Below are positions 11,940-62,700 of a stretch of 64,000 nucleotides of DNA, piece after piece. Origin of the DNA: Chiloscyllium plagiosum (lineage: Eukaryota); NCBI RefSeq assembly GCF_004010195.1, contig NC_057755.1:4177462-4241461 (forward strand), written 5' to 3'. The number at the start of each line of letters is the position of its first letter. Position 1 is the first letter of the stretch. A program made the position numbers and the translations under genes. A model generated the notes under the pieces. The model was not told the DNA's origin. It was given only the letters and a program-made list of their open reading frames with translations, and did no database searches.

Positions 11940-12039
11940 AAACAGGAAAAATCAGCTGCTCAGTTCCATCACAGGTTTCTTGTCCCTCCATTACTTGGAG
12001 ATAACAGAAGCCCTCTCTGTCCAGTCCCTATTCCAACAA

Positions 12040-22200: not shown

Positions 22201-23888
22201 TAACGTACCATCTCGATATAACGTACCAGCCTCGGTATAACGTACCATCCTCGGTATGACGTACCAGCCTCGGTATGACGTACCAGCCTCGGTATAATGT
22301 ACCAGCTCGGTATGATGGACCAGTCTTGATATAACGTACCAGCCTCGGTATGATCAACCAGCCTTGGCATAATGTACCAGTCTCGATATAATGTACCAGA
22401 CTCATATAACGTACCAGCCTTGTATAACGTACCACCCTCGATATGACGTACCCGCCTCAGTATGACATACCAACCACGGTATAAAATACCACTCTTGATA
22501 TAACTTATCAGTTTCAGAATGACATACCAGCCTCGGTACGACGTACCAGCCTCGGTATAATGTACCAACCTCGGTATAATGTACCAACCTTGGTATGATG
22601 TACCAGCCTCGGTATAATGTACCAACCTCGGTATAATGTACCAACCTTGGTATGATGTACCAGCCTCGGTATGATGTACCAGCCTCGGTATAATGCACCA
22701 ACCTTGGTATGATGTACCAGCCTCGGTATAACGTACCAGCCTCGGTATAACGTACCAACCTCGGTATGACGTACCAGCCTCGGTATAATGTACCAGCCTC
22801 GGTATGACGTACCAGCTTCAGTATGATGTACCAGCCTCGGTATAATGTACCAGCCTTGGTATGACGTACCAGCCTCGGTATAACGTACCAACCTCGGTAT
22901 GACGTACCAGCCTCGGTATAATGTACCAGCCTCGGTATAATGTACCAGCCCCGGTATGACGTACCAGCCTCGGTATAATGCACCAGCCTCGGTATAATGT
23001 ACCAGCCTTGGTATAACGTACCAGCCCCGGTATGATGTACCAACCTCGGTATAACGTACCAGCCTCGATATGACGTACCAGCCTCGTATAACGTACCACC
23101 CTCGATATGACGTACCCGCCTCAGTATGACATACCAATCACGGTATAAAATACTACTCTTGATATAACTTATCAGTTTCAGAATGACATACCAGCCTCGG
23201 TATGACGTACCAGCCTCGGTATAATGTACCAACCTCGGTATAATGTACCAACCTTGGTATGATGTACCAACCTCGGTATAATGTACCAACCTTGGTATGA
23301 TGTACCAGCCTCGGTATAATGTACCAACCTCGGTATAATGTACCAACCTTGGTATGATGTACCAGCCTCGGTATGATGTACCAACCTTGGTATGATGTAC
23401 CAGCCTCGGTATGATGTACCAGCCTCGGTATAACGTACCAGCCTCGGTATAATGTACCAGCCTCGGTATAATGTACCAGCCTTGGTATAACGTACCAACC
23501 TCGGTATGACGTACCAGCCTCGGTATGACGTACCAGCCTCGGTATAATGTACCAGCCTCGGTATGACGTACCAGCTTCAGTATAATGTACCAGCCTCGGT
23601 ATAATGTACCAGCCTCGGTATAATGTACCAGCCTCGGTATGACGTACCAGCTTCAGTATAATGTACCAACCTCGGTATGACGTACCAGCCTCGGTATAAC
23701 GTACCAACCTCGGTATGACGTACCAGCCTCGGTATAACGTACCAACCTCGGTATGATGTACCAGCCTCGGTATAATGTACCAGCCTCGGTATAATGTACC
23801 AGCCCCGGTATGACGTACCAGCCTCGGTATAATGCACCAGCCTCGGTATAATGTACCAGCCTTGGTATAGCGTACCAGCCCCGGTATG
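19221..23888. repeat. 19-bp tandem satellite, consensus GTACCAGCCTCGGTATRAY; runs into a gap
   Basis: Roughly 245 contiguous units. The 19-aa periodicity of the minus-strand ORFs confirms a 19-bp unit. Confidence 0.98.
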
Positions 23889-24440
23889 NNNNNNNNNNNN
23901 NNNNNNNNNNNNNNNNNNNNNNNNNNNNNNNNNNNNNNNNNNNNNNNNNNNNNNNNNNNNNNNNNNNNNNNNNNNNNNNNNNNNNNNNNNNNNNNNNNNN
24001 NNNNNNNNNNNNNNNNNNNNNNNNNNNNNNNNNNNNNNNNNNNNNNNNNNNNNNNNNNNNNNNNNNNNNNNNNNNNNNNNNNNNNNNNNNNNNNNNNNNN
24101 NNNNNNNNNNNNNNNNNNNNNNNNNNNNNNNNNNNNNNNNNNNNNNNNNNNNNNNNNNNNNNNNNNNNNNNNNNNNNNNNNNNNNNNNNNNNNNNNNNNN
24201 NNNNNNNNNNNNNNNNNNNNNNNNNNNNNNNNNNNNNNNNNNNNNNNNNNNNNNNNNNNNNNNNNNNNNNNNNNNNNNNNNNNNNNNNNNNNNNNNNNNN
24301 NNNNNNNNNNNNNNNNNNNNNNNNNNNNNNNNNNNNNNNNNNNNNNNNNNNNNNNNNNNNNNNNNNNNNNNNNNNNNNNNNNNNNNNNNNNNNNNNNNNN
24401 NNNNNNNNNNNNNNNNNNNNNNNNNNNNNNNNNNNNNNNN
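23889..24440. other. Assembly gap
   Basis: N run. Confidence 1.
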
Positions 24441-25062
24441 TGAAGGTCGTGTCTCGGACTGGTGCCCTGGTGCTCCTGGTGAGCCACAGGGTTTGGTGCT
24501 GTGACCTTCGGCATTTGTTACTTGTATAAATGATCAGCATGATGAGTAAGTTTGCAGATGATACAAAATTAGGAGGTATCATTGATAGCGAGGAAGATTG
24601 TCAAAGATTGCAGGGATGTGGGCTGACGATTGGCAAACACAATGCAATTCAGATAAATGTGAGGTGTTGTACTTTAGAAAGTCAATCCAAGGTAGAACTT
24701 ACACCGTAAATGCTAAGGTCCTGAACAGTGTTGTGGAACAGAGGGACCCAGGAGTACAATTACATAGTCCTTGGAATGTGGGGAAAAAGGTAGACAGGAT
24801 GTTGAAGAAGGCATCTAGCATGCTGGCTTACATTGGTCAAAGCAACGAGTATAGGAGTTGGGATATTATGTTACAGCTGTATAAGTCATTGGTGATGTTG
24901 CACTCGGAGTATTGTGTTCAGTTTTGGTCACCCTGTTGCAGGAAAGACACAAATAATATTGGAAAGATTTGCCAAGATGTTACCAGAATTAATCGACCTG
25001 AGTTATAGGGAGAGGTTGGCCAGGAGAGGACTTTATTCCTTGTATTGAGGAGAACGAGGGGT
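24441..25062 (+). mobile_element. CR1 LINE RT 3' region relic
   Basis: SKFADDTK...WQTQCNSDKCEVLYF...LYKSLV..HSEYCVQFWSP. Confidence 0.9.
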
Positions 25063-25562: not shown

Positions 25563-27400
25563 AATGAAAACACCGGGGCTTTTTAACTTCTCTGTCCCCT
25601 TGAAGGGTTTCCTTTTTATTCTGTGGTATGTTATCCCTACAATCTTCACCAAGATCTACCTTTCCTTTCCGCATCAGGATTTCTCTTTTCCACATTTTCT
25701 GTCGCTCATGGACTGAAACTGATATTGGAAGCCAATCTTTGATATCTGGACAAACGCATGTTCATCATTTTGCCATTTTCACTCTCAGCTCTTCCTCTTG
25801 AGATCTCACTCCTTCAGGAAGAGAATTTTTGAACCCCTCCAAAATAATTGTATCTCTAAGAACATCGTAGGTTTGCTCTATTTTTTAAAATATCCTTATC
25901 CACCTGCAAAAATTATTTTGTTTGATCCTTTCAAACTCAGTTTAGGTTTGACCGGGGTCCCTCCGTAGATTCCTGGAACGTTGCCTGTTGGCTTCTAGCA
26001 CAAGCTCCTATGCACTTAAGCTGGCTTTATTCACCTCCTCGTACTCCCCAGACACCTCCTCTGACAGCTCACTCGCTCTCCCTACATGTTTTGTTTGGAT
26101 CAACAAAATCCACATGGTCACGGATCACTACATTTGTTTCGCTACCTTTTCAAGTGAGATGGAAAAGGCTTCCACATCCTTCTCATTGAATTTAGAAATT
26201 AATTGTATCTATTTAAACCGTTTCGCACCCGGCCTTTGTTTACCATGGGTTTGCGCATTCTCACAAAGTTTACCTTCCGCCTTCATCTCCATCCTTTTAA
26301 GCTGACTTTCCTGTCTCAGTGTCACTTTCTGAAGTTTAACCTCCCTCTCTTGCTTCCCTTCCTTTCCTCTCTCGCCTTTCCTTCCTCTTTCTCTCTCTTG
26401 CCTCTCTCTTTCTCTGTTTTTCCCTTCTTGTTCTGAGAAGCGGTTCGTTCTTTTTCTCTTTCCTCTGTTGAAGTAATAATTCAAACTGTTTCGTTTCTGC
26501 TGCCCTTGCCTTGTCTCTTGCCTCTCACTCAAGCTGCTACATTTTCAATTGAACATTAGCCATCTCTAAAGATTCTGATGGCGTTTCCAGTGAATGTAAA
26601 CGCTGAGCTACTGCTGTCCTTTCCTCACGGAAGGAGGCAGCTCCAACCCCATCCTGCCATAATTCTATCAGTTTGGTCTTAATTACTTATTGCAAAACCC
26701 CAAGGTCACCTCTTCCACCTGCAGAGAACCTTTGGTGACTGAAAGAGCCATTGTTATCCCAAGCACAGTTTAAGCCAACTGAGTTCAACCTCCAGAACAA
26801 AAGATTGTAACGCCCACCACCCGCTGAGACCAACAACCCTGATCTCAAATCAAAACAATGGAACAAATTCCAGATGAGACCCCAATCTGTAATGTACCAG
26901 GCCAGAGCCCTCCAAACATTTCAAGAAGGTAGCTCAGACTCTCACTGTGTTAGTTGTTTTAAGCAGGTGTACAGCGGATATTCCAGGAGAGATGCAGTTG
27001 CCCTCACCACTTAGTTTGAAACAAAATAGAATTTATTTAAAAGATGTCCAAATGAAGCAGACACAAAAGAGAACAGAATACAGAATAACTTAACCTCTCT
27101 GAAAACCCAACAGATTATCCCAACTTAATGATGCTGTCCCAATACTTGCAACAACTCCCATCAACACTCCTTGGTACAAAGGAGAAAATCAAACCCAGGG
27201 TGTTAGAGGAGAGAAGGTAGATACAGGATCAGTCAGGACCTGCTTCTGTGGGTCCAGCAGCTTCAAAACAAGACTGCTAAAACTCAAACCAAACCAGAGC
27301 TCAGAGAACGGGCTACTCCCCCTTCATTGGACAACGGTTTTATTTTCAAAACCTCGGAAGCCTGTTGGCTGAGAGAAATCCAAGTTAATGTTTCATTGCC
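25563..27400 (-). mobile_element. Second Gmr1-like SCAN-gag Gypsy relic with LTR from 26888 and a Pro-like PBS
   Basis: Homologous to 1040-3296. Minus strand reads YEEVNKASLSA*ELVLEANRQRSRN...IKQNNFCRW, followed by a coiled-coil E/R-rich stretch. Confidence 0.75.
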
Positions 27401-27913
27401 AGTGTTTTTCTCAGAACTGGATCAGAAAGAATAACTCTGATCTTTCATCACAGATGGTGCCAGACCTGATGAGATTTTCCAAATGAAGCAGACACAAAAG
27501 AGAACAGAATACAGAATAACTTAACCTCTCTGAAAACCCAACAGATTATCCCAACCTTAATGATGCTGCCCCAATACTTGCAGCAACTCCCATAAACACT
27601 CCTTGGTACAAAGGAGAAAATCAAGCCCAGGGTGTTAGAGGAGTGAAGGTAGATACAGGATCAGTCAGGACCTGCTTCTGTGGGTCCAGCAGCTTCAAAA
27701 CAAGACTGCTAAAACCCAAACCAAACCAGAGCTCGGAGAACGGGCCACTCCCCCTTCATTGGACAACGGTTTTATTTTGAAAACCTCGAAAACCTGTTGG
27801 CTGAGGGAAATCCAAGTTAATGTTTCATTGCCAGTGTTTTTCTCAGAACTGGATCAGAAAGAATAACTCTGATCTTTCATCACAGATGGTGCCAGACCTG
27901 ATGAGATTTTCCA
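27050..27913 (+). repeat. Tandem duplication, two ~432-bp units (27050-27480, 27481-27913)
   Basis: Near-identical copies beginning AAATGAAGCAGACAC, with TCCA microhomology at the junction. Confidence 0.95.
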
Positions 27914-32900: not shown

Positions 32901-32961
32901 CCACGCATGTCAGCTCCACAATCCCAGTGTCCAAATAGAATTGTGCATCTACATGGTGGTG

Positions 32962-33280
32962 GCATGGTGGCACAGTGGTTAGCACTGCTGCCTCACAGCG
33001 CCAGAGACCCGGGTTCAATTCCCGCCTCAGGCGACTGACTGTGTGGAGTTTGCACGTTCTCCCCGTGTCTGCGTGGGTTTCCTCCGGGTGCTCCGGTTTC
33101 CTCCCACTGTCCAAAGATGTGCAAGGCCAGGTGAACTGGACATACGAAATTGTCCGTAGTGTTAGGTAAGGGGTCAATGTAGCGGTATGGGTGGGTTGCG
33201 CTTCGGCGGGTCGGTGTGGACTTGTTGGGCCGAAGGGCCTGTTTCCACACTGTAATGTAATCTAAATAATCTAATCTAAA
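32962..33280 (+). mobile_element. Full-length young HE1-type V-SINE
   Basis: tRNA-derived head with A box (TGGCACAGTGG) and B box (GGTTCAATTCC), V-domain and (AATCT)n tail. Absent from the homologous site at ~15890. Confidence 0.92.
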
Positions 33281-33857
33281 TTGCTGGCCAGCATGATCCC
33301 AACTAGCATTATTGTGTGTGAGTCAAACTTGAAACTTTTATGAAGATGTTTTCAATATTATATTTATTATTAACAGCAAAGTGTAATCATTGAAGATCAT
33401 AAATGCTTTGATCATAGCCACTTGATTGTCCAATGAACAAATCCACCCATTTGTTTAGTTCAATTTTCAGATTGAAACCTAATGAAAACATAGTGCCCAA
33501 ATGGTGCGGCTGGTGAGCGCACCCAGGATCAAATTATTATTTAGCTTAAGAACTCTGAAAATATCCAATTATTTTTCCTTTGAATACAAATATTCCACAC
33601 CTAATTGTCTTCATGACAATAATTTAACTATGTTTCCAAATATTCCAGATACGAGGTCACATTAAATCTGTTCGATCTGTCTCACATGTGAATAATCTGG
33701 GATAAGAATCTCAGTGCCTGTGTGATGCTACGTAAGCCGTGCCTCTGAATGACTGACAGATTGTTCCAACAGCATATCCCTTCAGCTCTTCACAACAAGC
33801 AAGTTGCTGCCTGCACCCAACCAGTTTATACTCACAAAACCTTAAACCCACAGTCCA

Positions 33858-36499: not shown

Positions 36500-37990
36500 C
36501 AGGTGGAGAATGGTGACTTAATTCTGTGAGCGTCCACATTTTAGGAAGTTATCCCATAATCCCTAACAGTGCACAGAGTTGAAGACTTGAAGGTCGAAGA
36601 AGGCCATGTACAGAGATTACTGCTGTTCTCTGAACTCTGCTTGAATTTGTCACACTGAAAATCCTGGCCATTCAGTCTCTTGATGGGCTGAAGCTGCCCT
36701 GAGACTCGGAAGGAGATCTTCAGCCACTGGGAGGAGGGACTGAGGAGGATTCTCACAATGACCTTTTTCATAGCGGACAGTAGAAAATTTCTCTGTACGG
36801 TTGCACCTGTCTCCTTTTTTGAAGATGGTCACAGTAGTGGCGTCTCTGAGATTTCTGAGCATGCTCCCTTCATTCCAGTAAATGATGGTGAGGTGGATTC
36901 ATGACAAGAATGACTCTCCGCCATATTTTAGTCCTTCACTGGGGAGTCGATCTGTGCTGGTAGGCTTGTTGCTGTTCTGTTGCTGGAGGTGGTTTTGTCC
37001 TCAGGGTTGGTTGGAGGTTTGCTGAGATAGCAGTGGGTAGAGTGACTCAGGAACACTTGTGCTAAAGGCTGTGAATTGATGGAGGAGGCCCTCAAAGTGG
37101 TCTCTCCAGCGAGTGCTGAGTGCCTCTTGGTCTTTGATGAGGGAGTCTCTGTGCTTGGCTCTCAGTGGGGTCACTCCCTGGGTACTCGGGCTGTAGGTGG
37201 ATTTGATTGAGCTGAAGAATCCGTACACATTGTGGCTGTCAATGAGTCACGGACTCTGCTGCTGACTTTCTCTACTCACCATCTACTCTTTAGGTCACAG
37301 CTACTTTGTTTCACCTCGGCCTTCAGTTGCGTCTCTGCTTGTTTCCATTTGCTGGAGTTATGGTGGAGCTGCCGTTTCAGGACTACCTCACCTTTGCAGT
37401 CTTGGAGATCTTCCTCACTGATTATCCTCACTGAGCCAATCTTGGGGTTTCCTGGTCGAGAGGCCAAGGGTCTCCACACAGTTGCTGACTGGGAAGGGGT
37501 TTAGGGTGGATCAGATGTTGTGGGCACTCTGTGACTCAGGTATCTTGGTCACCATCATGTCGGCGGTGAGGCCCTGCCTGAGAAACACTTCCATCAGCGG
37601 GATAGCGATAGTTTGAGGATGGTGTGGAATGAGTCTTCTGTCTCCTGCATTGTGTCTAGAAGTGGCCTTTCTCCTGCCAGTCATATCCCACTCACAGCGA
37701 CGATGTCAGTGTTGTGATGCTGTCCAATGGCAGCAGTGAATTATTCAGGTCTATGGGGTTGATGTTATCCATCAGGTTCTGAATTTTCCAGCTCGCAGAT
37801 TGATTTGCGCGTGGAGCAGCGTTGAGATGGAAGCTGCCTGTTTGTGGATCCCTTTAATTTGGAGTGTTCCCTGCACACCAACCACCACATGGTCCCAATG
37901 GAATGAGGTCTGGAGCCAATGGCAGGGAAAGTCCGAGAGAACTGAAGACCAGGCTCTGCTTCAGGACGCTGCTGGGTTTCTTTGAACAGA
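36500..37990 (-). mobile_element. RTE LINE relic, mirror of 12040-13400
   Basis: LRDATTVTIFKKGDRCN; TPLRAKHRDSLIKD...RWRDHFEGLL. Confidence 0.8.
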
Positions 37991-40900
37991 GATGAGATAG
38001 ACAGTGTTTCTGTTATCTGAAATTTATTTGGGGGAACAAGCAACTAAAGATGAAGCTGACCAGCTAATTGGTCCTTCTGGTTGAAATGCTGTCTTCTGAG
38101 TTCAAAGAGTCTGTAATTGTCTTTATCAAGAAATGTTTGATAAATCTTCTCAACACTCTAATTTCTGCGCATGTTGAGTCTGCCAAGACCATGCAAGTAT
38201 CTCTGTGTGTCATGGACATTGCCTATAAGGTACAAAACACAGAATTCGAGTTGACATCAATAGTCCATGTGTGTATTTTTTATTTTTCACACCAAGAAAA
38301 AAGAAATCCATTGGACAATATTACTGTTTTTATTTCAGAAAGACATCAAGTGCTGAATTTTGTTATTATGCGTGTGTGTATGTGTCTGTGATCATGTAAA
38401 GAGATGACCACTTATACTTCTTTATTACTGATGTCTGGTTTATATATCTTTCTTATTTCAGCCTGACACAGACACATTTGGTGATGTTTAATTCACCAAA
38501 TGTACAGTTTCCCAGTTTTGCACACCTGCCATGGCCCTTATCTAATGGTCCTTCCTTGTGCTTCTTCATCACCCTGAATTACATCCACCTACAGTTCCGC
38601 CATTTACACCTACCCAATAACAAAGTCACTGAATCTCCATCCATGCTTCTCCCCGTTGGAGAGTTCCAGTAGACTAGAGGTGGACAAATACATAAAAGAA
38701 TCTGCCCAGAATATTGCTCCAAAGCAAAGTGAGAACCTGCAGGAGATGTCACATTGCACATTGAACAGAAGAGATATAAAGAATTAATGTTTGTGGTTGT
38801 GGTGGCAATCAAGGAACTGCTTTGTTCTGGAGAATGTCAGTCCTCTTGAGTGTTGTTGGAGGTGCACTCATTCCAAGCAAATGGAGAGTGATCCATCATG
38901 CTCCCACCTTGGAGATGATGGCCAGGCTCTGGCAGATAGGGGTGTCAGGAGGTGAGTTACTCGCTGCAGGATTCCGAGCACCTGAACTGCTCTTGGAGCA
39001 ACATTATTTGTATCAATGCACCTGTTCAGTTTCTAGTCAATGGTAACTGTCAGGTTGTTGATAATAAAGAATTTAATAGCGACAATGCTATTGAAGCACA
39101 GTGATCAAGAGGTGGATTCACTCCTGACTGTACTCGTGTGGTGTGAACATTATTTGCCATTTATCAGCCAAAGCTTGCATATTGTCCTGGTCTTGCACCA
39201 TTTGGACATGGACTGCGTCAGGAATTGAAGAGTCCTTGAAAGTAGACTCGCAGGTAGATAGGAAAGTAAAGAAGGCGTTTGGTGTGTTTTCCTTTATTGG
39301 TCAAAGCACTGAATATGGGGGTTGGGAGGTCATGTTGAGCTGTATATGACATTAGTTAGGCTACTTTTAGAATTTTGCGTACAATTCGGAAGTATTTTCT
39401 GAAACTTGAAAGGGTTCAGAAAAGATTTACAAGGATGTTGCCAGGATTGGAGGACTTGAGCAATAGGGAGAGGCTGAATAGGCTGGGGCTGCTTTGGCTG
39501 ATGCATCAGAAACTGAGGGGTGACATTATAGAAGTTTATAACATCATGAGGGGCTTGGATAAGCTAAACAGACAGGATCTTTTCCCTGGAGTGGGGGAGT
39601 GCAGAACTAGAGGATACAGGGGTTAGGACGAGAGGGGAAAGATATAAAGGGGATCTAAGGAACAAATATTTCATGAAAAGGGTGGTGCATCTATGGAATA
39701 AGCTGTCACAGGATGTGGGGGGACTGTTACCATTACAGCATTTAAAATAAATCTGGATGGGTATATGAATAGGATGGGTTGAGAGAGATATGGGCCAAGT
39801 GCTGGCAAATGGAGCTATCTGGTCGGCATGGACGAGTTGCACGAAATGATATGCTTCCGTGCTGTAAGTCTCTATACTCTATCACTCACAATTGTGCTGT
39901 ATGTTTTACAATCATTAGTGAGTGTCCTACTTGATGGAACAAAGGTGATTCATGAAGCAACTGAAGATGGTTGGGCCAATGACACTACCGTGATGAAGGG
40001 TAAGACTCCATAATGCCATATTCAGTCAAATGTTACATTTGTGTCAAGTTTAGTCACTCTCACCTCACCTCTGGAATGCCTCTCTTTTACTATGCCTGCA
40101 CCAAACGTTTTTATGAGGTCAGGAGGCAAGTGACCCTTGGTTGAAACCATACTAACCGCCTTTGAACATGTCCTAACTTTGCAATTATCGCTTAATAGCG
40201 AACCTTTCCATCACTTTGGTAACCCTGGAGAGTCGACAAATAAGGTGGCAAATGGTTAGGTTGAGGATTTCCTGCTAATGATCTCTCCGCCATATTTTAG
40301 TCCTTCACTGGGGATTCGATCTGTGCTGGTAGCCTTGTTGCTGTTCTGTTTGCTGGAGGTGTTTTTGTCCTCAGGGTGGGTTGGAGGATTGCTTAGATGG
40401 CAGTGGGTAGAGTGTGTCAGGAACACTTGCGCTGAAGGCTGTGAATTGATGGAGGAGGCCCTCGAAGTGGTCTCTCCAGCGAGTGCTGAGTGCCTCTTGG
40501 TCTTTGGTGAGGGACTCTCTGTGCTTGGCTCTCAGTGGGGTCACTCCCTGGGTACTCGGGCTGTAGGTGGATTTCATTGAGCTGAAGAAGCCGTACACAT
40601 TGTGGCTGTCAATGAGTCACGGACTCTCCTGCTGACTTTCTCTACCCACCATCTATTCTTTAGGTCACGGCTTCTTAGTTTCACCTCGGCCTTCAGTTGC
40701 GTCTCTGCTTGTTTCCATTTGCTGGAGTTAGGGTGGAGGTGCCATTTCAGGACTACCTCACCTTTGCAGTCTTGGAGATCTTGGATCTCCCGCTTATTCT
40801 CAATGAGCCAGTCCTGGGGTTTCCTGGTCGAGAGGTCAAGGGTCTCCACACAGTTGCTGACTGGGAAGGGGTTTATGGTGGACCAGATGTTGTGGGCACT

Positions 40901-43841
40901 CTGTGACTCAGGTATCTTGGTCACCATCAGGCCGGCTGTGAAGCCCTACCTGAGAAACACTTCCTTCAGCGGGATAGCGATAGTTTGAGGCTGGTGTGGA
41001 ATGAGTCTTCTGTCTCCTGCATTGTCTCTAGATTCAGGGCAGAGGCACTGACAGCTGTGAGATGCTGCTTCTGGCCTAGGATGTGTCAGAGGATCATGAG
41101 GAGCTCATTTACCCCAGAGGGGATTTGTTGGAATGTCTGACTAGTTACTTTGTTATGGTGAAGCTGGTCCCATAGAGATCTGTGTTTGCGTTTCACGAAG
41201 AAAGTAGATCTGCCACCTTGTTCTTGAAGTGACCTTTCTCCTGCCAGTCATATCCCCCTCACAGCGATGATGTCAGTGTTGTGATGCTGGGCAATGGCAG
41301 CAGTGAATTATTCAGGTCTATTGGTGTTGATGTTATCCATCAGGTTCCGAATTTTCCAGCTCGCAGGTTGATTTGCGCGTGGGGCAGCGCTGTGATGGAA
41401 GCTGCCTGTTTGTGGATCCCTTTAATTTGGAGTGTTCCCTGCACACCAACCACCACATGGTCCCAATGGAATGAGGTCTGGAGCCAATGGCAGTGAAAGT
41501 CCGAGAGAACTGAAGACCAGGCTCTGCTTTAGGACGCTGCTGGGTTTCTTTGAACAGGGACGAGATAAACAGTGCGTCTGTTATCTGAAATTTATTTGGG
41601 GGAACAAACAACTAAAGATGAAGCTGACCAGCTAATTGTTCCTTCTGGTTGAAATGCTGTCTTCTGAGTTCAAAGAGTCTTTAATTGTCTTTATCAAAGA
41701 ATGTTTGATAAATCTTCTCAACACTCTAATTTCTGTGCATGTTGAGTCTGCCAAGACCATGCAAGTATCTCTGTGTGTCATGGACATTGCCTATAAGGTA
41801 CAAAACACAGAATTCGAGTTGACATCAATAGTCCATGTGTGTATTTTTTATTTTTCACACCAAGAAAAAAGAAATCCATTGGACAATATTACTGTTTTTA
41901 TTTCAGAAAGACATCAAGTGCTGAATTTTGTTATTATGCGTGTGTGTATGTGTCTGTGATCATGTAAAGAGATGACCACTTATACTTCTTTATTACTGAT
42001 GTCTGGTTTATATATCTTTCTTATTTCAGCCTGACACAGACAGATGTTTAATTCACCAAATGTACAGTTTCCCAGTTTTGCACACCTGCCATGGCCCTTA
42101 TCTAATGATCCTTCCTTGTGCTTCTTCATCACCCTGAATTACATCCACCGACAGTTCCGCCATTTACACCTACCCAATATCAAAGTCACTGAATCTCCAT
42201 CCATGCTTCTCCCCGTTGGAGAGTTCCAGTAGACTAGAGGTGGACAAATACATAAAAGAATCTGCCCAGAATATTGCTCCAAAGCAAAGTGAGAACCTGC
42301 AGGAGATGTCACATTGCACATTGAACAGAAGAGATATAAAGAATTAATGTTTGTGGTTGTGGTGGCAATCAAGGAACTGCTTTGTTCTGGAGAATGTCAG
42401 TCCTCTTGAGTGTTGTTGGAGGTGCACTCATTCCAAGCAAATGGAGAGTGATCCATCATGCTCCCACCTTGGAGATGATGGCCAGGCTCTGGCAGAGAGG
42501 GGTGTCAGGAGGTGAGTTACTCTCTGCAGGATTCCGAGCACCTGAACTGCTCTTGGAGCAACATTATTTGTATCAATGCACCTGTTCAGTTCCTAGTCAA
42601 TGGTAACTGTCAGGTTGTTGATAATAAAGAATTTAATAGCGACAATGCTATTGAAGCACAGTGATCAAGAGGTGGATTCTCTCCTGACTGTACTCGTGTG
42701 GTGTGAACATTATTTGCCATTTATCAGCCAAAGCTTGCATATTGTCCTGGTCTTGCACCATTTGGACATGGACTGCGTCAGGAATTGAACAGTCCTTGAA
42801 AGTAGACTCGCAGGTAGATAGGAAAGTAAAGAAGGCGTTTGGTGTGTTTTCCTTTATTGGTCAAAGCACTGAATATGGGGGTTTGGGGGTCATGTCGAGC
42901 TGTATATGACATTAGTTAGGCTACTTTTAGAATTTTGCATACAATTCGGAAGTATTTTGTGAAACTTGAAAGGGTTCAGAAAAGATTTACAAGGATGTTG
43001 CCAGGATTGGAGGACTTGAGCAATAGGGAGAGGCTGAATAGGCTGGGGCTGCTTTGGCTGATGCATCAGAAACTGAGGGGTGACATTATAGAAGTTTAAA
43101 ACATCATGAGGGGCTTGGATAAGCTAAACAGACAGGATCTTTTCCCTGGAGTGGGGGAGTGCAGAACTAGAGGATACAGGGGTTAGGACGAGAGGGAAAA
43201 TATATAAAGGGGATCTAAGGAACAAATATTTCATGAAAAGAGTGGTGCATCTATGGAATAAGCTGTCACTGGATGTGGGGGGACTGTTACCATTACAGTA
43301 TTTAAAATAAATCTGGATGGGTATATGAATAGGATGGGTTGAGAGAGATATGGGCCAAGTGCTGGCAAATGGAGCTATCTGGTCGGCATGGACGAGTTGC
43401 ACGAAATGATATGCTTCCGTGCTGTAAGTCTCTATACTCTATCACTCACAATTGTGCTGTATGTTTTACAATCATTAGTGAGTGTCCTACTTGATGGAAC
43501 AAAGGTGATTCATGAAGCAACTGAAGATGGTTGGGCCAATGACACTACCGTGATGAAGGGTAAGACTCCATAATGCCATATTCAGTCAAATGTTACATTT
43601 GTGTCAAGTTTAGTCACTCTCACCTCACCTCTGGAATGCCTCTCTTTTACTATGCCTGCACCAAACGTTTTTATGAGGTCAGGAGGTAAGTGACCCTTGG
43701 TTGAAACCATACTAACCGCCTTTGAACATGTCCTAACTTTGCAATTATTGCTTAATAGCGAACCTTTCCATCACTTTGGTAACCCTGGAGAGTTGACAAA
43801 TAAGGTGGCAAATGGTAAGGTTGAGGATTTCCTGCTGATGA
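36914..43841 (+). repeat. Tandem duplication of ~3.4-3.56 kb (36914-40282, 40283-43841)
   Basis: Paired ORFs (38068/41636, 38579/42139, 39828/43388). Copy 1 lacks ~200 bp present at ~41030-41228. Confidence 0.95.
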
Positions 43842-43846
43842 TACTT

Positions 43847-45633: not shown

Positions 45634-48567
45634 AAGTCCTGTAAAATTCTGAATATAAGCTGCCACCAGTAAGTCTCAGCTGCCAGGAGCACATGTTGGA
45701 TATTGTGTCTGTGATGATTGTGAAGTTCAGTGTTATTTTAACGGATCGATCCTGTGATGCCAGTGCTACTGATATTAACCTTGTATTATAATTTATCACC
45801 GAGCTCCACAGGAGTAAGGGAAGGAATATGATAGACCTTTCAAATATAGAGAAAGTCTAATTTGAAGACGCTGAACCTTTCTTATATAATGTCCATAATT
45901 CTCAAGAATCAGCAGAAGCATTGTTCTCCAATCTCTGTTCAGATCAGTTTTTCCCATCTAGATGTTGAACTTGGAATGGTTTGAACCATATAATCTACAC
46001 TGCTCCCATTTCCTGTACTTTTTTTTTATTTCTTGTATCTCAATCTTCATGAAATCTCAACTGAAATATGCTCTGGTGAATATTTCCAGGATGTGAACAG
46101 AGGGACACAGAAGGAAACACCCTAGTTCCAGAGAGCTTTTCAATGATAGAGAGAGGGGAGAGAGAGAGAGAGAGAGGGAGAGGGAGAGGGAGAGAGAGAG
46201 GGACACGGTAGGTGGCAAGTTGAACCCAACGATCGCCTTGCTTCTCTACATCTCACATCAGTCGTACAACCAATTGTGTTAACGGATTATGACTTATGAC
46301 ATTGTGATTGAGGGGGTGGCAGTTATACAGTTACAAATCACCGTTAGGCCTTAGACATAGTCTTGAAGAACTCCAGCAGTGACGTCTGGAGATTAAATGG
46401 CTGGCTTCCAACGAACACACCAGTCACATGTAGTCCAGACCAGGTACAGACAGTCAATTTCTTTCCGTAAAGGACATTAGTGAAACAATGGGTTTTTACA
46501 ACAAGTTACAATGGTTTCCTCGTCAGTATTAGAGACATAATTCCAATTATTTATTCAACTGAAGTTCTGGAATCCATCATGATAAGACTTGTCAGAGGTG
46601 GTACTGCAGATGTTGGAGATTAGAGTCAAGATTAGAGTAGGTCATCAGGACGAAGGGCTTTTGCCAGAAACTTCGATTTTCCTACTACTCGGATGCTGCC
46701 TGACCTGCTGTGTTCTTCCAGCACCACTCTAATCATGATAAGATGACCTGAGCCCATCATAATACTTTGGAAGTATCTGAATATTTAGAACCCAAACGTG
46801 ATACTTTTGTTCCAATAACCAAAATAAGGGTTTTCTGTTTTGTTATTTAACATTGAATGTAATATTAATTTGTCATTATTTGGTTTCTGGAAAATGGGAA
46901 CGTAGACATAATGGGGCTGAAAATTGCATTTAATTGGATTGACTGTGAACAATTGTGAGACCATTTCGGTTACCTCTGATTGAGATGGGTTCGTGTATTT
47001 GTTCAGTGGGAAGCCTGAAGGAATCATGGATGTGCCGAGTGAACTGTTTTCCTGTGCAAAGGAATGTATTAAGTAGAAAGGTAGAAGAATAATTTACATG
47101 TGTTATGTGTGTGCTTGAATATGTGTGTGTGAAATGCCTCATTCTTCCACATTATGAGTGTTCTATGAAGAATTCTTCCTCTCACTTAGCCTTAAAGGAC
47201 GTTGGAATGTTTTGATCCTCCAGTGCTCTGGTTTCCTGCCAAAATCCAAAGATGTGCAGGTTAGGTAAATTGACCAAGCTAAATTGCCCATAGTGTTCAA
47301 GTATGAGTAAGTTGGGACATTCGTTGGGGCTAGGTGTAGAGCAATGGGGTGAAGGAGTGGGCCTAGGTGGGTTGGCCTTCGGAGGGTCGTTGTGGACTTA
47401 TTGGGCAGAAAGGCCTGTTTCCACATTGTCGGGGATTCTATTCTCTCCTGTAGTTTTGGCGAGTGTAAAAGTGGACAAGTCCTGAGGTCTGCAGGAGCCG
47501 TAACGAACGAGATGACGATGGAAATTATAAGTACTGTGATCAAATGTTTAATTCCTCTTCAGCTACCCGATTAGTCAGAGGACTTCAGCACAGCTGATGT
47601 GTTTCCACTTTTCAAGAAGGGTGGTGGAGATTCACTGCGAATTACACGTCAGTGATTCCCAGTGCACGGGAAACTATTAGAGAAAATTCTGAAGGAGAGA
47701 ATTGATCTCCATTTTGAGAGGCAAGGCTAGATCAGTCACTGTGGCTTTGTTACAGGGATGAAATGGCTTACAAATCTGGTGGAGTTTTTCGAGTAGTTGA
47801 CCGTGTCTGGAGATGAGGGTAGGGCAACTGGTGAGGGTAGGGTATATGGTTTTCAGCAAGGTATTTGACAAGGCAGCACATGGGAGATTAATAACTAAGG
47901 TAAAAGCACATGGCATACAAAATTAATTAATTAGCAAATTGGTTCCAAAAGTGGCTCTGTCAGAGGAGGCAGAGGGTGTTGATCGAAGGCTGGATGTGTA
48001 ATTGGAGACTGGTGTTCAGTGCAGTGGTATACCACTGGGATGGATGTTGTGTCCCTTACTGTTGGTGATATTCATAAATAATAATGAAGAGTGCATGTTT
48101 GTGCATGCACATGCGCCCATGTGTATGTGTGTCTGCTGTATCTGTATCTGAGTCAGTATGTGTGTTTGTGTGTGTGTGTGCGAATGTGTGTGCTGTACGG
48201 AATGAGGGTGGGTGGGGATGATAAATAAGTTTGCGATGACAAAAATATTGATCGGATGTTTGACAGTGAGGAAAATATTCTTAGGTGACAAACAGAAATA
48301 GTTAGGTTGGTCACATGGGCAGATCAATGGCAGGTGGAATTTAACCCTGATAAACCTGTAGGTGATACACGTTGTCACAAGTTTCAAGACAAGGCAGTAC
48401 TCAATGAATGGTATGACATTAGAAAGGGCAAAGGAACCAAAATATCTTGTGGAGCTTGTTAACAAATCTCTAAAGGTAGTAGGACAGGTCAGTAGGGTAG
48501 TTCAGAAGTCGTATATGATATGTGCCTTTACCATTCCAGACATCAGAGCAGGGAGGTCCTGTTGGAG

Positions 48568-49130
48568 TGAAACTTTATATCCTGTTGCAGGCCCTCTTGG
48601 TCCTGGGACTCGACAAAAGAATGACTAGGAGTACAATCTGCTTAAAGCAAGTTTACCAGTTTAATAAATTAATAAATAGAAGTAGCCTGGGGTAGATTTG
48701 CCAGGCAACATGGAGGTTAAAAGTTTCTGTGTTCCGTAGAGAAATGGTGCAAATACATTTACGTTTTTTTTTAATAGATAGTACAGCCTTAATTACAAGA
48801 AAAGACCAATCATATCTAATAAGGTGAAATGATTGACAACAGGCTAATCCAATGATATTTCAAGGGAAACAGATTGTTATGTGCATGTTTACTAGTTCAA
48901 GGTTACCTCAAAGACGAAATCACTGTCTTATAATTCATATTATGAAAATCCATTATAATCTCTTATCTTCTATTTAGCTTAACTCAACAAAACAGCAGCA
49001 CAAGTTCACAGAGTCAAGTTCATACTTTCAGACATTATGTTGTGTTATTTTAAATTGAAAAGCCATTTCGTGGTTAATAAAAATCTACGTATCCTTGTTG
49101 CAACTGATAACAGCCTAAATTCAAATTATA
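48568..49130 (-). mobile_element. ERV 3' LTR, inverted duplicate copy
   Basis: Reverse complement of 60639-61301, preceded on the minus strand by the PPT-like AGGGAATGAGGA. Confidence 0.8.
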
Positions 49131-49156
49131 GATCCTCATTCCCTGCGTTGGTCATT

Positions 49157-50950
49157 CTATGACCACACCATAAAGGCATGGACCAAATTAATCCAATTCG
49201 GTGGCAGTGAAAGACTGCAATCCTTTCTCTTCCTCTGAAGAGGAATCAAGGACAGGCGATGATGCTTCCTCATCATCATAAAAGTGAGAAGAAGCATTTT
49301 CTGGGTGCAACCAATGTTGTCAATAGAAATTAATATTTTAGCAATAATACACTTATCAATAGCAATGCTAACAAAATGAGCAAATGAACAATAGCAGCAT
49401 ACATAGCCATATTGATAAACCATAAACCAAAACCCCAATCTCCCCACCCTGCATCTTCATTCATTTGGTTGACAGAAATGCGGATGATATCTGTATGTCC
49501 AATAATGTTTTCGATAAAGTTAGTGACCCCCATGATGCACTTCCCTTTGACTATGACACAAACGCCACCTTCCTTCACAATAATGTAATCGAGAGCATAG
49601 CAGGTTTTGTTGGGTAAATAGGCACAATTCTGAAAGTAAGACCCTTATTTCTATTAGGCAGCAGTTGTCTCATTTCATGAAATTGTGGGTCCACAAATAT
49701 TTTGATGATTAATAACTCCTGAAGTCCCTCTAACGGAAAGAACACGAAGTGCTGCATATGTTAATGAGTGAGTTTTACTATTTGATAGAAGCTTTGGATC
49801 CTTCCATTCTGCTCAAAAGTCAGAAGAAACTGAAAGTTTGACACGGGAATTTGAATCTCGGTGCCAGGTAATTGGACGGGAACAGGAGTTGGAAATGATG
49901 CTTCTACAGATACAACACGTGGAGTACTTGCTATATTCAGGACAAGATACCTTCCTATAACTGAATAATAATATCCAGGTTAAGTATAGATAATGGAGGG
50001 ATCTTCCCAATAAAAAGCGGGCCTATCTTTGTGACTTCCTGAGGTACCTGGGTAATCCTTGATTACATAGTTTGGTCCAAACATAAAGGCTGGAAATTAT
50101 TCAGTCTAATGAGGTGGGTCTCTTGATAAGAATCGTGGTCGACCTCGCAGAATGGTTCTACCCATCCAATAACTGGGAAGATATTAGTGCAATTAGGTGT
50201 ATCGTAATGAAGTTGGTTGTGGCAAACCACCCCACAAAGGGTTTGAATGCCAGAGGTAAAAGAGACACATTCACTCCTTCAGGGAAATAGTGACAACTGA
50301 TAAATATAGGCATAGCACAGGGGATACTTTTAGGGAATTTTACACTCCAATCCGTGCACACCCATCCCTTACTGTTGTAGCAATTTGAATAGGATATAGC
50401 GGATTTATTGGAGGATGTCCATAATCCTGTAAATACTTTAGAATTATTCGTACCCCCATGTTAGGATTTGGAAGGATAAATGAGGTCAGGGAGTGTATTG
50501 CTGAAGTAAAGGCGTAACTTCAACCTCTCCAAATATGTTATTATGAGTTTCGATGAACAAATTGTTAGTGAAGGATAGCATCCCACCTTTCCTCTTTTAC
50601 TACATGATCTATCTGAAAGGGGCATGGCTCAGTAGAGATGCCCATTGTACAAATGAAATTAAACTGACGTACAACATCTTTAGACGATAAAGACCATTTA
50701 GATTTGTTCTGTAAATGAACTGGTCAACCTTTTTGATGCAGTTGACCACTGCATTAGTCATTCTTGGTAACATTCAGTCTCTTGGCACACAAGGACATCT
50801 TCCTGGCAGAGATGGTACACAGTCTCTGGTTGCTCAGGATCGCACTGGTAAACTGTCCCTTCTTGTGCTCCAAATCTGGCAATGGCAAGTCCATGCAGCC
50901 GAGCAAGTGCGATCTATAATATCTCTCCCCTTCCACCCCCATTTGCAAGT
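49157..50950 (-). pseudogene. env: ERV env pseudogene, second copy
   Basis: ICGPTIS*NETTAA...SELCLFTQQN...DYIIVKEGGVCVIVKGKCIMGVTNFIENI...GWGDWGFGLW followed by a TM helix; many stops and frameshifts. Confidence 0.88.
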
Positions 50951-51450
50951 NNNNNNNNNNNNNNNNNNNNNNNNNNNNNNNNNNNNNNNNNNNNNNNNNN
51001 NNNNNNNNNNNNNNNNNNNNNNNNNNNNNNNNNNNNNNNNNNNNNNNNNNNNNNNNNNNNNNNNNNNNNNNNNNNNNNNNNNNNNNNNNNNNNNNNNNNN
51101 NNNNNNNNNNNNNNNNNNNNNNNNNNNNNNNNNNNNNNNNNNNNNNNNNNNNNNNNNNNNNNNNNNNNNNNNNNNNNNNNNNNNNNNNNNNNNNNNNNNN
51201 NNNNNNNNNNNNNNNNNNNNNNNNNNNNNNNNNNNNNNNNNNNNNNNNNNNNNNNNNNNNNNNNNNNNNNNNNNNNNNNNNNNNNNNNNNNNNNNNNNNN
51301 NNNNNNNNNNNNNNNNNNNNNNNNNNNNNNNNNNNNNNNNNNNNNNNNNNNNNNNNNNNNNNNNNNNNNNNNNNNNNNNNNNNNNNNNNNNNNNNNNNNN
51401 NNNNNNNNNNNNNNNNNNNNNNNNNNNNNNNNNNNNNNNNNNNNNNNNNN
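50951..51450. other. Assembly gap
   Basis: N run. Confidence 1.
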
Positions 51451-52191
51451 ACTGAAGTCACTCATTTCTCTGAAAACAGAGTTATAACCCACTGCATTTA
51501 GCTGACAAAAGTTTAAAATCAATCAGCTAATATGTACGATAACTGTTCGTGGGATGCTAAAACAAGATTTATTGTCCATTCCTTATTGCCCAGAAGGCAT
51601 TTGGGAATGAATCTGGAGTCACGTGTAAATCAGTGTAGGTAATGTTCTTCACTTAAGAACATTAATGAAGTAGTTATTCACTTGTTTCACCACCATCATC
51701 CCTCCCCCAGATAAGCAATAGCGTTTTCATATTTGACATCAGATTATTTGGATATAATTCGTATTTCTTCTCCTTCCTCGATGAGATTCAAAGGCAGCTC
51801 TTCAGAACATGAGCTTGATGGTCTTGGATGTCCGTCCCGTGATAATCCCACCAGTCTACCATGAATTCCTTGTGCAGTTAGTGAATTATGGCAGACATTT
51901 CCCATGAGTAAACAATCCACTTCAGTTCTGAAACACTTCATGTTTATTTGCCTTTTGAAATAAATAAGCAGAAGATTACAACCTTTAAGGCCATTCCATG
52001 TCATTGGAAGTCACGGCATTGCTGCAAACGACAGGTGCCCCTCCCTTGTATTGGACTGTGTTCATTATGTACAGATTTCTCATCAGTGACTGCGCGAAAT
52101 ATGTCTTTAAGGTTCAGTGGTCTCACGGGCTGAGGTGAAACCTTGGCCCCTGACTGCAGGAATCAATAAACGTCTCGTCTTTGCTTTCCAG

Positions 52192-52325
52192 CTCGATCCC
52201 GGAAATGTATATTTGTGGGAGGGGTGTGCAGATTTGAAAAATGTCTCGATGATGAATTCGAGTTTGGTAAGGGTTGCAGACAACATCACCTTTGCTGCAT
52301 GAATATCAATGGACCGCAAGGTTAA
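52192..52325 (+). CDS. Beta-defensin-like mature peptide, terminal coding exon (phase 1)
   Basis: Follows the acceptor TCTTTGCTTTCCAG and reads RSRKCIFVGGVCRFEKCLDDEFEFGKGCRQHHLCCMNINGPQG*. Cysteine spacing is C-x6-C-x4-C-x10-C-x5-CC with GxC. An ATTAAA poly(A) signal lies at 52411-52416. Confidence 0.8.
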
Positions 52326-52619
52326 TCTGAGGCTGTGCTGAAGCTTACTGCAAAATCCTTTGTTATTGGATGTGTCCGCATGGACCCTAAGCCACTGTTT
52401 CTGTATCATCATTAAAGGTGTTCACTGTTACTCGCATCCCGTGGCCCGTGTCTGATTTCAGACCGTGACCGGTGTATCTGGTTATGTCTTTGGTGTGGGG
52501 ATAAGGACGCGGTGGTGGTGGTGGTGGTGGTGGTGGTGTGGGGGGGGGTGGGGGGGTTAATGATCAGAAATGGTAGAAATATGGTCACCACTGTCAGCTC
52601 CTAACTACCCAACTTCATA

Positions 52620-53014
52620 GAACCATTGTCAACAGAGCCCTCTTACCTGTGTCTGACCCATTTCCCACCCTTTCAACATCAACCCCTTACCCCTCTTACA
52701 GCAGAGATCGATTTCTCCTTGTCCTTACCTACCATACCACCACCAGCATCCACATCCAGAAAAACATCAGATCCCATTTATAACACCTCCAGTGAGATGC
52801 GACCACCAGACACATATTCCAACTTCCGCAGGAATCATTCCCTGTGGGACACCCTGGTCCACTCTTGCTTCACTCCTAAGAGCCCCAACACTTGTCTGGC
52901 ACCTTCCCTTGCAACCCCCTAAGGTACAACCTGCCAATTTACCTCTTCCCCACTCAGTATCCAAGGGCTCAAACATGCCTTTCAGGTGAAGCAACGATTT
53001 ATCATCACTTTTCA
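52620..53014 (+). mobile_element. Penelope-like element relic (RT/GIY-YIG linker)
   Basis: FRRNHSLWDTLVHS...GTFPCN...IQGLKHAFQVKQRF. Confidence 0.7.
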
Positions 53015-53109
53015 NNNNNNNNNNNNNNNNNNNNNNNNNNNNNNNNNNNNNNNNNNNNNNNNNNNNNNNNNNNNNNNNNNNNNNNNNNNNNNNNNNNNNN
53101 NNNNNNNNN
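53015..53109. other. Assembly gap hiding the ERV 5' junction
   Basis: N run. Confidence 1.
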
Positions 53110-56056: not shown

Positions 56057-56378
56057 CAGATTATTTATTATTATTTTTTAATTAGATTACATTGCAGTGT
56101 GGAAACAGGCCCTTCGGCCCAATAAGTCCACACCGACCCGCCGAAGTGCAACCCACCTACATTTACACCTTACCTAACACTACGGGCAATTTCGCATGGC
56201 CAATTCACATTTCCTGCACATCTTTGGACTGTGGGAGGAAACTGGAGCACACGTAGGAAACCTGCGCAGACTCGGGGAGAACGTGCAAACTCCACACAGT
56301 CAGTCGCCTGATGCGGTATTTGAACCTGGGTCTCTGGCGCTGTGAGGCAGGAGTGCTAACCACTGTGCCACCGTGCCG
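56057..56378 (-). mobile_element. Full-length HE1-type V-SINE inserted in the ERV
   Basis: Reverse complement of 32962-33280. Confidence 0.92.
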
Positions 56379-56749
56379 CCCACTAATGACAATTATGACA
56401 ATCAAGATTCCAAAATGTATAGTTAGCAACAGGCTTTAAAGTTAGACAAACATAAATTGTTAAATTGGTTAAATAAGGTTAAAATTAAATTAGAGCCGAG
56501 GAGATCAACAACAGAAGGGAACGGAATGATGCAATAACAAGGATAAAACAAGGATAAAGCAGTAGAATACAGATTTTAAAAATGTTTTAGTTAGATTCCC
56601 ACACTGAATTACAGATAATGATTCATTTATTCATTACTTTATTATGATACTTTATACTATTTATAATAATCAGTTGTATTCGCCCCAATCAAATTTCATT
56701 GGCAGGGTCGCTTGTTTTAATTCCATTGCACATTGTCAGTGACCTGTCT

Positions 56750-58779: not shown

Positions 58780-60617
58780 CTTGCACGCGGGATGGAAGAG
58801 GAGAGATAATATAGATCGAACTTGCCCGGCTGTGTGGACTTGCCATTGCCAGCTTTGGAGCACAAGAAGGGACAGTTTACCTGTGCGATCCAGAGCAACC
58901 AGAGACTGTGTATCATCTCTGCCAGGAAGATGTCCTTGTGTGCCAAGAGACTGAATGTTACCAAGAATGAGTAATGCAGTGGTCAACTGCATCAAAAAGA
59001 TTGAACAGTTCATTTACAGAACAAATCTAAATGGTCTTTACCCTGTAAAGGTGTTGTGTGCCAGTTAAATTTCATTTGTACTATGGGCATCCCTGGTCAG
59101 CCATGTCCCCTTTTAGATAGATCATGCAGTAAAAGAGGAAAGGTGGGATGCGATCTTTCACTAACAATTTGTTTCTCGAAACCCATAATAACTTATTTGG
59201 AGAGGTTGAAGTTACGCCTTTACTTCAGCAATAGACTCCCTGACCTCTTTTCTCCTTCTAAATCCTATCATGGGGGTATCGAATAGTTCTAAAGTATTTA
59301 CAGGATTATGGACATCCTCCAATAAATCCGCAATATCCTATCCAAATTGCTACAACAGTAACGGATGGGGGTGCACGGATTGGAGTGTACTTATGTAAAA
59401 TTGCCTACAATTATCCCCTGTGCTATGCCTAAATGTATCAGTTGTCACTGTTTCCCGGAAGGACCACACATTCCTTCAGGAGGAATGTGTCTCTATTACC
59501 TCTGGTATTCAAATTCTTTGTGGGGTATTTTACCACCACCAACTTCATTATGATACACCTAATTGCACTAATATTTTCCCCGTTATTGGATGGGTAGAAC
59601 CATTCTGCGATGTCGATCACGTTTCTTATCAAGAGACCCACCTCATTCGACTGAATGATTTCCAGCCTTTTTGTTCGGAACCAAACTATATAATCAAGGA
59701 TTACCCAGGTACCTCAGGAAGTCACAAAGATAGGCCCGCTTCTTATTGGGAAGGTCACTCCATTATCTATACTTAACCTGGATATTATTATTCAGTTATA
59801 GTGAGGCATCTTGTCCTGAATACAGCAAGTACTCCACGTGTTGTAGCTGTCGAAGCATTATTTCCAACTCCTGTTCCCTGTCCAATTACCTGGCACCGAG
59901 ATTCAAATTCCCGTGTCAAACTTTCAGTTTCTCCTGAGTTTTGTGCAGAATGGAAGGATCCAAAGTTTCTATCAAATAGTAAAACTCACTCATTAACATA
60001 TGCAGCACTTAGTGTTCTTTCCGTTAGAGGGTCTTCAGGAGTTATTAGTCATCAAAACATTTGTGGACGCACAATCTCATGAAATGAGACAATTGCTTCC
60101 TAATCGAGGTAAGGGTCGTGCTTTCAGAATTGTGCCTATTTACCCAACAAAACCGCGATGCTCTCGATTACATTATTGTGAATGAAGATGGCATTTGCAT
60201 CATAGTCAAAGGAAAGTGCATCATGGGGGTCACTAACTTTATCGAAAACATTACTGGACAAATAGATATCATCCGCACTTCTGTCAACCAAATGAATGAA
60301 GGTGCAGGGTGGGGAGATTGGGGTTTTGGTTTATGGTACAAAGGGCTTATCAATATGGCTATGTATGCTGCTATTGTTCATTTGGTCATTTTGTTAGTAT
60401 TGCTATTGATCAGTGTATTATTGCTAAAATATTAATTTATATTGACAACATTGGTTTCACCCAGAAAATACTAATTCTCCACTTTGATGATGATGATGCG
60501 GAAGCATCATCGCCGGTCCCTGATTCCTCTTCAGAGGAAGAGAAAGGATTGCAGTCTTTCGCTGCCATAGAATTGGATGAATTTGGTCCATGCCTTTATG
60601 GTGTAGTCATTGAATGA
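58780..60617 (+). pseudogene. env: ERV env pseudogene with filovirus-GP2-like TM subunit (TM from ~59924)
   Basis: Decayed furin site RVKL at 59912-59923, Cys pair at 59942/60062, NET, ISD-like QQNRDALDYII, CX6C, NIT, Trp-rich membrane-proximal segment, TM helix and acidic tail. Confidence 0.9.
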
Positions 60618-61301: not shown

Positions 61302-62700
61302 CTCCAACAGGACCTCCCTATTCTTATGTCTCGAATGGTAAAGGCACATATCCTATACGCCTTCTGAACGACCCTATTAACCTGTCCTGCTACCTTTAGA
61401 GATCTGTTAACAAGCTCCTCAAGATCTTTTGGTTCCTTTGCCCTACCTAGTGTCGTATTATTCATTGAGTACTGCCTTCTTTTGAAGCTTCTAGTAACCG
61501 GTATCACCTACAGGTTTATCAGGGTTACATTCCACCTGTCATTGATCTGCCCATTCACCAACCTTTCTATTTCTGATTGTCACCGAAGAATATTTTTCTC
61601 ACTGTCAAACATCCGATCAATATTTGTGACATGGCAAACATATTTATCATCCCCACACACACTCAGCCCCTACAGCACACACATTCACAACACACAAGCA
61701 TACTCTGACACACACAAACACGAACACACAGACTCACTCACATACAGACACAACAGACACACACACACATGTGCACACGTGTGCATGCACAAAAAGGCAC
61801 ATTCTTCATTATCATTTATGAATATCACCAACAGTAAGGGACCCAACATTCATCCGAGTAGTACACCACTTCATCTGATCACCAGCCTTCAATTACACAT
61901 CCAGCTTTCTATCAACACCCTCTGCCTCCTCTGACAGAGCAAATTTTGGAACCAAATTGCTAATTAATTGTGGATGCAACGTGCTTTTACCTTAGTTATC
62001 AATCTCCCATGTGCTGCCTTGTCAAAGGCCTTGGTGAAAGCCATACACACTGCATCAGTTGCCCTACTCTCATCGACAGACACGGTCAACTACACGAAAA
62101 GTCCCATCAAGTTTGTGAGCGGCACGGTGGCACAGTGCTTAGCACTGCTGCCTCACAGCACCAGAGACCCGGGTTCAATTCCCAACTCAGGCGACTGACT
62201 GTGTGGAATTTGCACATTCTCCCCGTGTTTCCTCTGGGTGCTCCGGTTTCCTCCCAGAGTCCAAATATGTAAAGGTCAGGTGAATTGGCCATGCTAAATT
62301 GCCTGTTGTGTTAGGTTAATGAATGGGAATGGGTGGGTTACGCTTCGGCGGGTCGGTGTGGACTTGTTGTAAATACTGTAAATAATCTCATCTAATCTCT
62401 GTAACAAAGCCGCAGTGACTGATCTAGCCTTGCCACTCAAAATGGAGATCAATTCTCTCCTTCAGAATTTTCTCTAATAGTTTCCCGTGCACTGCGAATC
62501 ACTGACGTGTAATTCCAGGTCAATCTCCACCACACTTCTTGAAAAGTGGAAACACATCAGCTGTGCTGAAGTCCTCTGATTCATCGGGTAGCTGAAGAGG
62601 AATTAAAAATTTGATCACAGTACTTGTAATTTCCACGATCATCGCCTTGGTTACAGCTCCCGCAGACCTCAGGACTTGTCCACTTTTGGACTCGCCAAAA
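61302..62700 (-). mobile_element. CR1 LINE relic into which the ERV integrated (mirror at ~47450-48567, + strand)
   Basis: Minus strand SKSGQVLRSAG...ADVFPLFKK and SLKVAGQVNRVVQKAY. Confidence 0.8.
62119..62397 (+). mobile_element. HE1-type V-SINE present only in the right arm
   Basis: tRNA head and V-domain; the homologous site at ~47755-47770 is empty. Confidence 0.88.

Follow-up and report, generated by a model that had tools for sequence, protein, structure and literature searches.

A predicted beta-defensin-like terminal exon in the shark Chiloscyllium plagiosum

Does a short open frame, lying on a small piece of assembled sequence between two gaps, encode the mature peptide of a beta-defensin in a shark? 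We interrogated this frame within a window of 64,000 nucleotides from Chiloscyllium plagiosum (RefSeq GCF_004010195.1, NC_057755.1, positions 4,177,462 to 4,241,461 of the forward strand; the window is the whole stretch analysed, and all coordinates are counted from its first letter). An earlier note, made from the letters, had read the frame as a beta-defensin-like exon. Judged by its sequence, the open frame at 52192-52325 is likely the last exon, encoding the mature peptide, of a shark beta-defensin gene with two exons. It is very likely to descend from the beta-defensin family, though the sequence evidence falls short of proving membership, and the balance tips slightly toward the prediction that this is an expressed host-defence gene. 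Published work is cited below for the particular passages concerned. The features of the predicted exon are as follows:

50951..51450, no strand: run of 500 N marking an assembly gap, and the closest possible site for the absent signal-peptide exon
52150..52191, plus strand: predicted 3' end of the intron, with CTGAC at 52150-52154 (a branch-point-like word), a pyrimidine tract and AG at 52190-52191
52192..52325, plus strand: coding part of the predicted terminal exon, with two bases completing a phase-1 codon, 43 codons and TAA
52206..52298, plus strand: core with six cysteines in beta-defensin-like spacing, C-x6-C-x4-C-x10-C-x5-CC, carrying a net charge near -1 at pH 7
52326..52416, plus strand: predicted 3' UTR to ATTAAA, a polyadenylation-like signal at 52411-52416

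The candidate acceptor AG at 52190-52191 on the plus strand (preceding letters ...tttgctttccAG) has pyrimidines at 14 of the 17 positions upstream. Equally pyrimidine-rich AGs with a pyrimidine at -3 number 29 among the 3813 plus-strand AGs of the whole window, and this AG ranks first of the five in 52101-52206 (pyrimidine count of 14 vs 9-11). Splicing there is predicted to be in phase 1, five codons before Cys1. The frame that follows comprises two bases and 43 full codons (52194-52322) and closes with TAA at 52323-52325; ATTAAA, the sole A[AT]TAAA from the stop to the next gap, begins at the 86th base after the stop. All the exon signals that the earlier note had listed, namely a polypyrimidine/AG acceptor before 52192, an open 43-codon frame with a stop, and ATTAAA about 85 nt further on, are thus present. 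Another AG, with 52159 as its last base, precedes the acceptor by 32 bases; it closely follows the CTGAC word and is in a different phase, and its use would shift the reading frame.

The six cysteines of the core are spaced as had been claimed, with Cys2 in the context G-V-C and a Glu four residues past Cys3, and the motif occurs once in the window when all six frames are searched. GxC at Cys2 is a feature of the vertebrate beta-defensin motif. The 6-4-10-5 spacing falls within the reptile-wide beta-defensin motif C-X(6-7)-C-X(3-7)-C-X(8-14)-C-X(4-7)-CC (PMC12278569), whereas its last interval, x5, deviates from the X6 of the canonical motif C-X6-C-X(3-5)-C-X(8-10)-C-X6-CC (PMC6716921). Lizard ovo-defensins have an eight-cysteine motif beginning C-X(3-5)-C (PMC12278569), and we rejected this identity for the shark exon, which has six cysteines and a first interval of x6. 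The peptide is weakly cationic, as proposed: the 43 predicted residues include 7 K/R and 5 D/E and carry a charge of +1.9 with a pI of 8.3, and the Cys1-Cys6 core, with its acidic and aromatic LDDEFEF loop, has a net charge of -1.1. A net positive charge is typical of mature beta-defensins but not universal: anionic ones exist (PMC3978493, PMC6716921), and reptile clusters include weakly cationic and anionic members (13 of 66 in the Komodo dragon; PMC6716921).

Using Markov simulations, we determined how often such a pattern arises by chance. An order-3 model gave no strict match and three loose matches in 60 windows, and an order-4 model gave six matches to the published reptile-wide motif in 500 windows, none of them with GxC. 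The chance rate of the bare motif is about 0.012 per window (roughly one in 80 simulated windows), and it would turn up now and then across many scanned windows; a chance motif would seldom also have GxC and, five codons before it, an acceptor that ranks in the top 1% and has the family's usual phase.

We searched three separate libraries for the family of the peptide. An HMM profile search, proposed earlier as a check, returned a beta-defensin profile as its sole Pfam match (PF13841 Defensin_beta_2, E 0.042), with a score of 14.7 bits that is below the 22.2 cut-off. In the ESM Atlas, each of the three top clusters is a beta-defensin cluster, at scores of 0.81-0.83 that constitute a lead only, this range being reached by a third of shuffled proteins; the ten best matches having a family all agree in family or clan, and recognition is 3244, against the 2300 that 9 of 100 shuffled proteins attain. 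The single PDB match is helianthamide (4x0n; E 0.6, not significant), which belongs to the beta-defensin family (PMC6835510). Beta-defensin is therefore the sole or top lead in all three libraries, and this agreement supports the original interpretation, though each lead is weak. Single-sequence AlphaFold2 models, made without an alignment, have pLDDT values of 55.0 (43 residues) and 52.4 (35 residues), a confidence too low for structural comparison to be informative, whether by Foldseek (no match at E<=10 for either model) or by VIA-align (13 chains at Z 2.0-2.5, no defensin among them).

Relatives of the peptide itself were sought in large collections. In a word search of 5.8 billion proteins, no entry of 24-77 or 78-2000 residues had three 5-residue words in common with it, and phmmer against 1.84 billion representatives gave two matches, both to long unrelated proteins and judged spurious. 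None of 594 pattern matches in metagenome contigs was confirmed, and the unnamed clusters of the ESM Atlas held no usable match to the peptide. No close annotated relative was thus found in the protein collections searched, in which distant ones could be missed. A broken host gene elsewhere in the window served as a control:

6698-7637, plus strand: GPR139-like GPCR gene disrupted by two frameshifts and three internal stops, its first exon possibly at 5471-5536

This gene is 62-76% identical to whale-shark copies. Of 1140 candidates retrieved with its fragment at 7188-7613 (Pfam 7tm_1), 667 proved to be relatives, and all of the 120 matches listed are from sharks or rays (best Rhincodon at 77%, Stegostoma and Chiloscyllium at 73-75%), indicating that shark proteomes are present in the collection that gives no relative of the peptide. 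The GPCR matches also point to a shark host, probably a carpet shark. The suggestion that the exon may be unannotated holds up in this collection. Since that collection has hundreds of shark GPCRs and no relative of the peptide, shark annotations appear to miss such short genes. The earlier note had also called the exon the only intact host exon of the window; this holds in the one comparison made, with the only other host gene found, the broken GPCR. The GPR139-like receptor family is much expanded in sharks, and its proximity to the defensin-like exon may be chance.

We compared the predicted gene with known defensin systems. It resembles tetrapod beta-defensins (PF13841, PF00711) in having spacing within published ranges, GxC at Cys2, a likely multi-copy state and a single exon that carries all six cysteines after a predicted phase-1 acceptor (PMC3978493, PMC7203481), a single-exon layout that is found in humans and birds (PMC3978493, PMC8231796). 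It differs from them in its shark host, its score below the Pfam cut-off, the x5 before CC, the slightly acidic core and a first exon that is unseen. Fish beta-defensins have mature peptides of 38-45 residues with a charge of +1 to +5 and a pI of about 8 (PMC3978493), and the predicted shark peptide, with its six cysteines, 43 residues, charge and pI, is within this range. However, teleost genes have three exons, with the cysteines split over exons 2 and 3 (PMC3978493, PMC8231796), unlike the shark exon, where a single open frame contains all six cysteines as well as the stop. Gene number is also low in teleosts (seven at most in salmon), whereas the shark exon seems to be multi-copy.

Outside the vertebrates, helianthamide aligns with the peptide at cysteines 2-6 and has an acidic stretch after Cys3, as the shark peptide does, but it is a cnidarian (sea anemone) protein, and the likeness, at E 0.6, is one of sequence alone. 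The C-terminal domain of invertebrate big defensins is a beta-defensin-like cysteine module preceded by a phase-1 intron, an intron position conserved between beta- and big defensins (PMC7203481). The candidate acceptor matches this position, which counts for a beta-defensin gene. Big defensins differ in having a hydrophobic N-terminal domain; the predicted upstream exon of the shark gene was not found in the assembled sequence.

In order to look for further copies of the exon, we compared four public sequencing runs with positions 51451-52510. A DNA run, X1, yields 48 contigs on this interval, of which a small number fall on a short repeat at 51567-51599; by identity, 16 are at >=99%, 20 at 95-99% and 12 at 90-95%. 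Two X1 contigs overlap on the exon, one with two differences (52205-52317, depth 18.1) and one with six (52186-52317, depth 7.8), where depth is not a copy number and the comparison is based on 8 of the 48 contigs, from a sample of one or more animals. The five base changes listed produce K17T, D20N, F25H and H33Y (codon numbering from 52191); none is silent, none falls at a cysteine and none creates a stop. Under neutrality, five replacements of five have a P of about 0.35 and sparing of the cysteines a P of about 0.55. Positive selection on the exon copies is not supported statistically, and the pattern of changes in X1 is evidence of neither positive nor purifying selection. In the 3' UTR, one X1 contig diverges from 52338 onward, matching at 25 of 30 letters, and TG is inserted at 52425 at a depth of 30.8 of 36.4. 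The second version of the exon and the diverged 3' UTR suggest paralogues rather than two alleles, so that the exon is likely to be one of several near-identical gene copies.

No second defensin exon was found within the 64-kb window. Two tblastn leads, at 33777-33818 and 15350-15376, were rejected as paralogous exons; both adjoin or lie in LINE-like sequence and are without the first cysteines. The piece that holds the exon is 1564 bases long (51451-53014) and is flanked by gaps at 50951-51450 and 53015-53109, as we infer is often seen with collapsed multi-copy DNA.

We also searched for the upstream exon that would encode the signal peptide. Three heuristic scans, using crude hydrophobicity and donor scores and judged by eye, gave no candidate on 51451-52191. 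Among 28 signal-exon candidates across the whole window, none resembled a defensin leader by eye; a relaxed candidate list for 27000-52191 held no convincing signal exon, and the donor-anchored candidates among those listed (19 on the plus strand, 3 on the minus strand) included none that was leader-like. The missing exon is possibly within the 500-N gap, which ends 740 bases upstream of the exon, or beyond it. Just upstream of this gap lies one arm of an inverted duplication that encloses the exon:

46206-50939 against 64000-58789, inverted: duplication arms with 81-91% identity
49333-49644, minus strand: decayed retroviral env-like stretch in one arm (Pfam TLV_coat, E 0.076, under the cut-off)
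60088-60432, plus strand: decayed retroviral env-like stretch in the other arm (Pfam TLV_coat, E 0.0034, under the cut-off)

The nearest signal-exon candidate, at 50715-50766, has a weak donor and is inside the duplicated arm with env-like remnants; it was not accepted, without being strictly excluded.

RNA data were examined for the same interval. Two single-cell RNA runs from one sample, subsampled to roughly 2% and 6%, gave no reads on the exon, and a set of contigs guessed to be RNA gave nothing on it, results that carry no weight on expression. The matches from X5 (two reads) and X7 (five contigs) are confined to the 33-base repeat at 51567-51599.

If the gene is expressed, an upstream exon would supply the signal peptide and one base, and phase-1 splicing would join it to 52192. 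Signal peptidase would then free a secreted peptide of ~43 residues with three disulfides, presumably paired 1-5, 2-4 and 3-6 as in the family. The gene may be one copy of a duplicated cluster that is diversifying at non-cysteine positions. Vertebrate beta-defensins combine antimicrobial action with immune signalling. Since the charge is low, at +1.9 for the whole peptide with a slightly acidic core, we would expect modest direct killing, in which membrane binding would fall to the basic N-terminal residues and those preceding Cys5, together with probable immune signalling by analogy with other vertebrate family members.

The exon might instead be a remnant of segmental duplication, either orphaned or silenced not long ago, that has no functional promoter or first exon; we consider this less likely. 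In keeping with this explanation, no first exon was found, the exon sits between the inverted arms with no paralogous exon on the mirror side, and the neighbouring host GPCR gene is broken. However, the exon retains an intact acceptor, open frame, set of six cysteines, stop and ATTAAA, no stop or frameshift is among the changes listed for the second version in X1, and the gap 740 bases upstream can hide a 60-base exon.

Less probable again is an expressed peptide with the beta-defensin fold whose main role is non-antimicrobial: it might bind a receptor as its ligand, inhibit an enzyme or serve in the reproductive tract. Such a role would fit the negative core with its acidic and aromatic loop, as well as the Pfam match to PF13841 and the top Atlas cluster, which is named beta-defensin 30 family; both families take in epididymal defensins. 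The sole PDB match, helianthamide, is an amylase inhibitor, and its relative magnificamide showed no antimicrobial activity (PMC6835510). Yet the helianthamide match is not significant, and the charge and pI of the whole peptide are ordinary among fish beta-defensins (PMC3978493). Finally, it is very improbable that the cysteine pattern arose by chance in non-coding DNA or that the exon belongs to some unrelated protein rich in cysteine: database support is weak throughout and the bare motif appears in 6 of 500 simulated windows when very many windows have been scanned, but no simulated window had GxC, the top-1% acceptor is at the phase and place of the family, the three libraries converge on one family, and ESM recognition exceeds the level that few shuffled proteins reach.

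Returning to the predicted beta-defensin gene, the exon probably adds a new member to a known family, in a lineage from which that family seems not to have been described. A literature search by titles and the starts of abstracts, mostly outside subscription journals and supplements, found nothing on chondrichthyan beta-defensins among the papers listed, and they may have been described before. A review of fish immunity from 2019, in the passage on antimicrobials of cartilaginous fishes, names transferrin, squalamine and kenojeinin only and no defensin (PMC6795676), and in a shark skin proteomics paper "defensin" appears solely in the reference list (PMC10707392). These sources are in keeping with the initial remark that beta-defensins are poorly documented in cartilaginous fishes. 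Taken alone, one exon with neither its partner exon nor RNA support adds modestly to what is known. A shark beta-defensin would nonetheless bridge invertebrate big defensins and bony-vertebrate beta-defensins, and the single six-cysteine exon agrees with the published view that the ancestral gene had two exons and that teleosts gained their third later (PMC8231796).

We tentatively propose that sharks may have a large, fast-duplicating and so far undescribed beta-defensin cluster of ancestral layout, with a signal exon followed by one exon for all six cysteines, of which this exon would be an expressed member from a near-neutral, recently amplified subfamily, with copies varying in the acidic loop and with target binding favoured over charge-driven lysis in salt and urea. 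If so, large clusters would date from the first jawed vertebrates or would have evolved a second time in sharks, and teleosts, with their small number of three-exon genes, would show the derived state. Many human defensins lose activity in salt (PMC6805989), so defensins that work at seawater-level salt and urea would be of interest.

The remainder of the window holds further duplications and repeats, the identities of its inverted pairs ranging over 74-91%:

11710-19028 against 41879-29917, inverted: duplication within this identity range
24441-25057 against 29770-29143, inverted: duplication within this identity range
9241-10584 and 10585-11939: recent tandem duplication, 96%
37650-40282 and 41218-43842: recent tandem duplication, 98%
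27047-27481 and 27478-27913: recent tandem duplication, 97%

A tandem minisatellite array at about 19150-24600, with an N gap inside it, contains spurious minus-strand open frames of up to 989 codons. A dispersed short repeat with 78-88% identity occurs at 32958-33269, 56078-56386, 62112-62369 and 692-861, and it resembles the elasmobranch HE1-type SINE.
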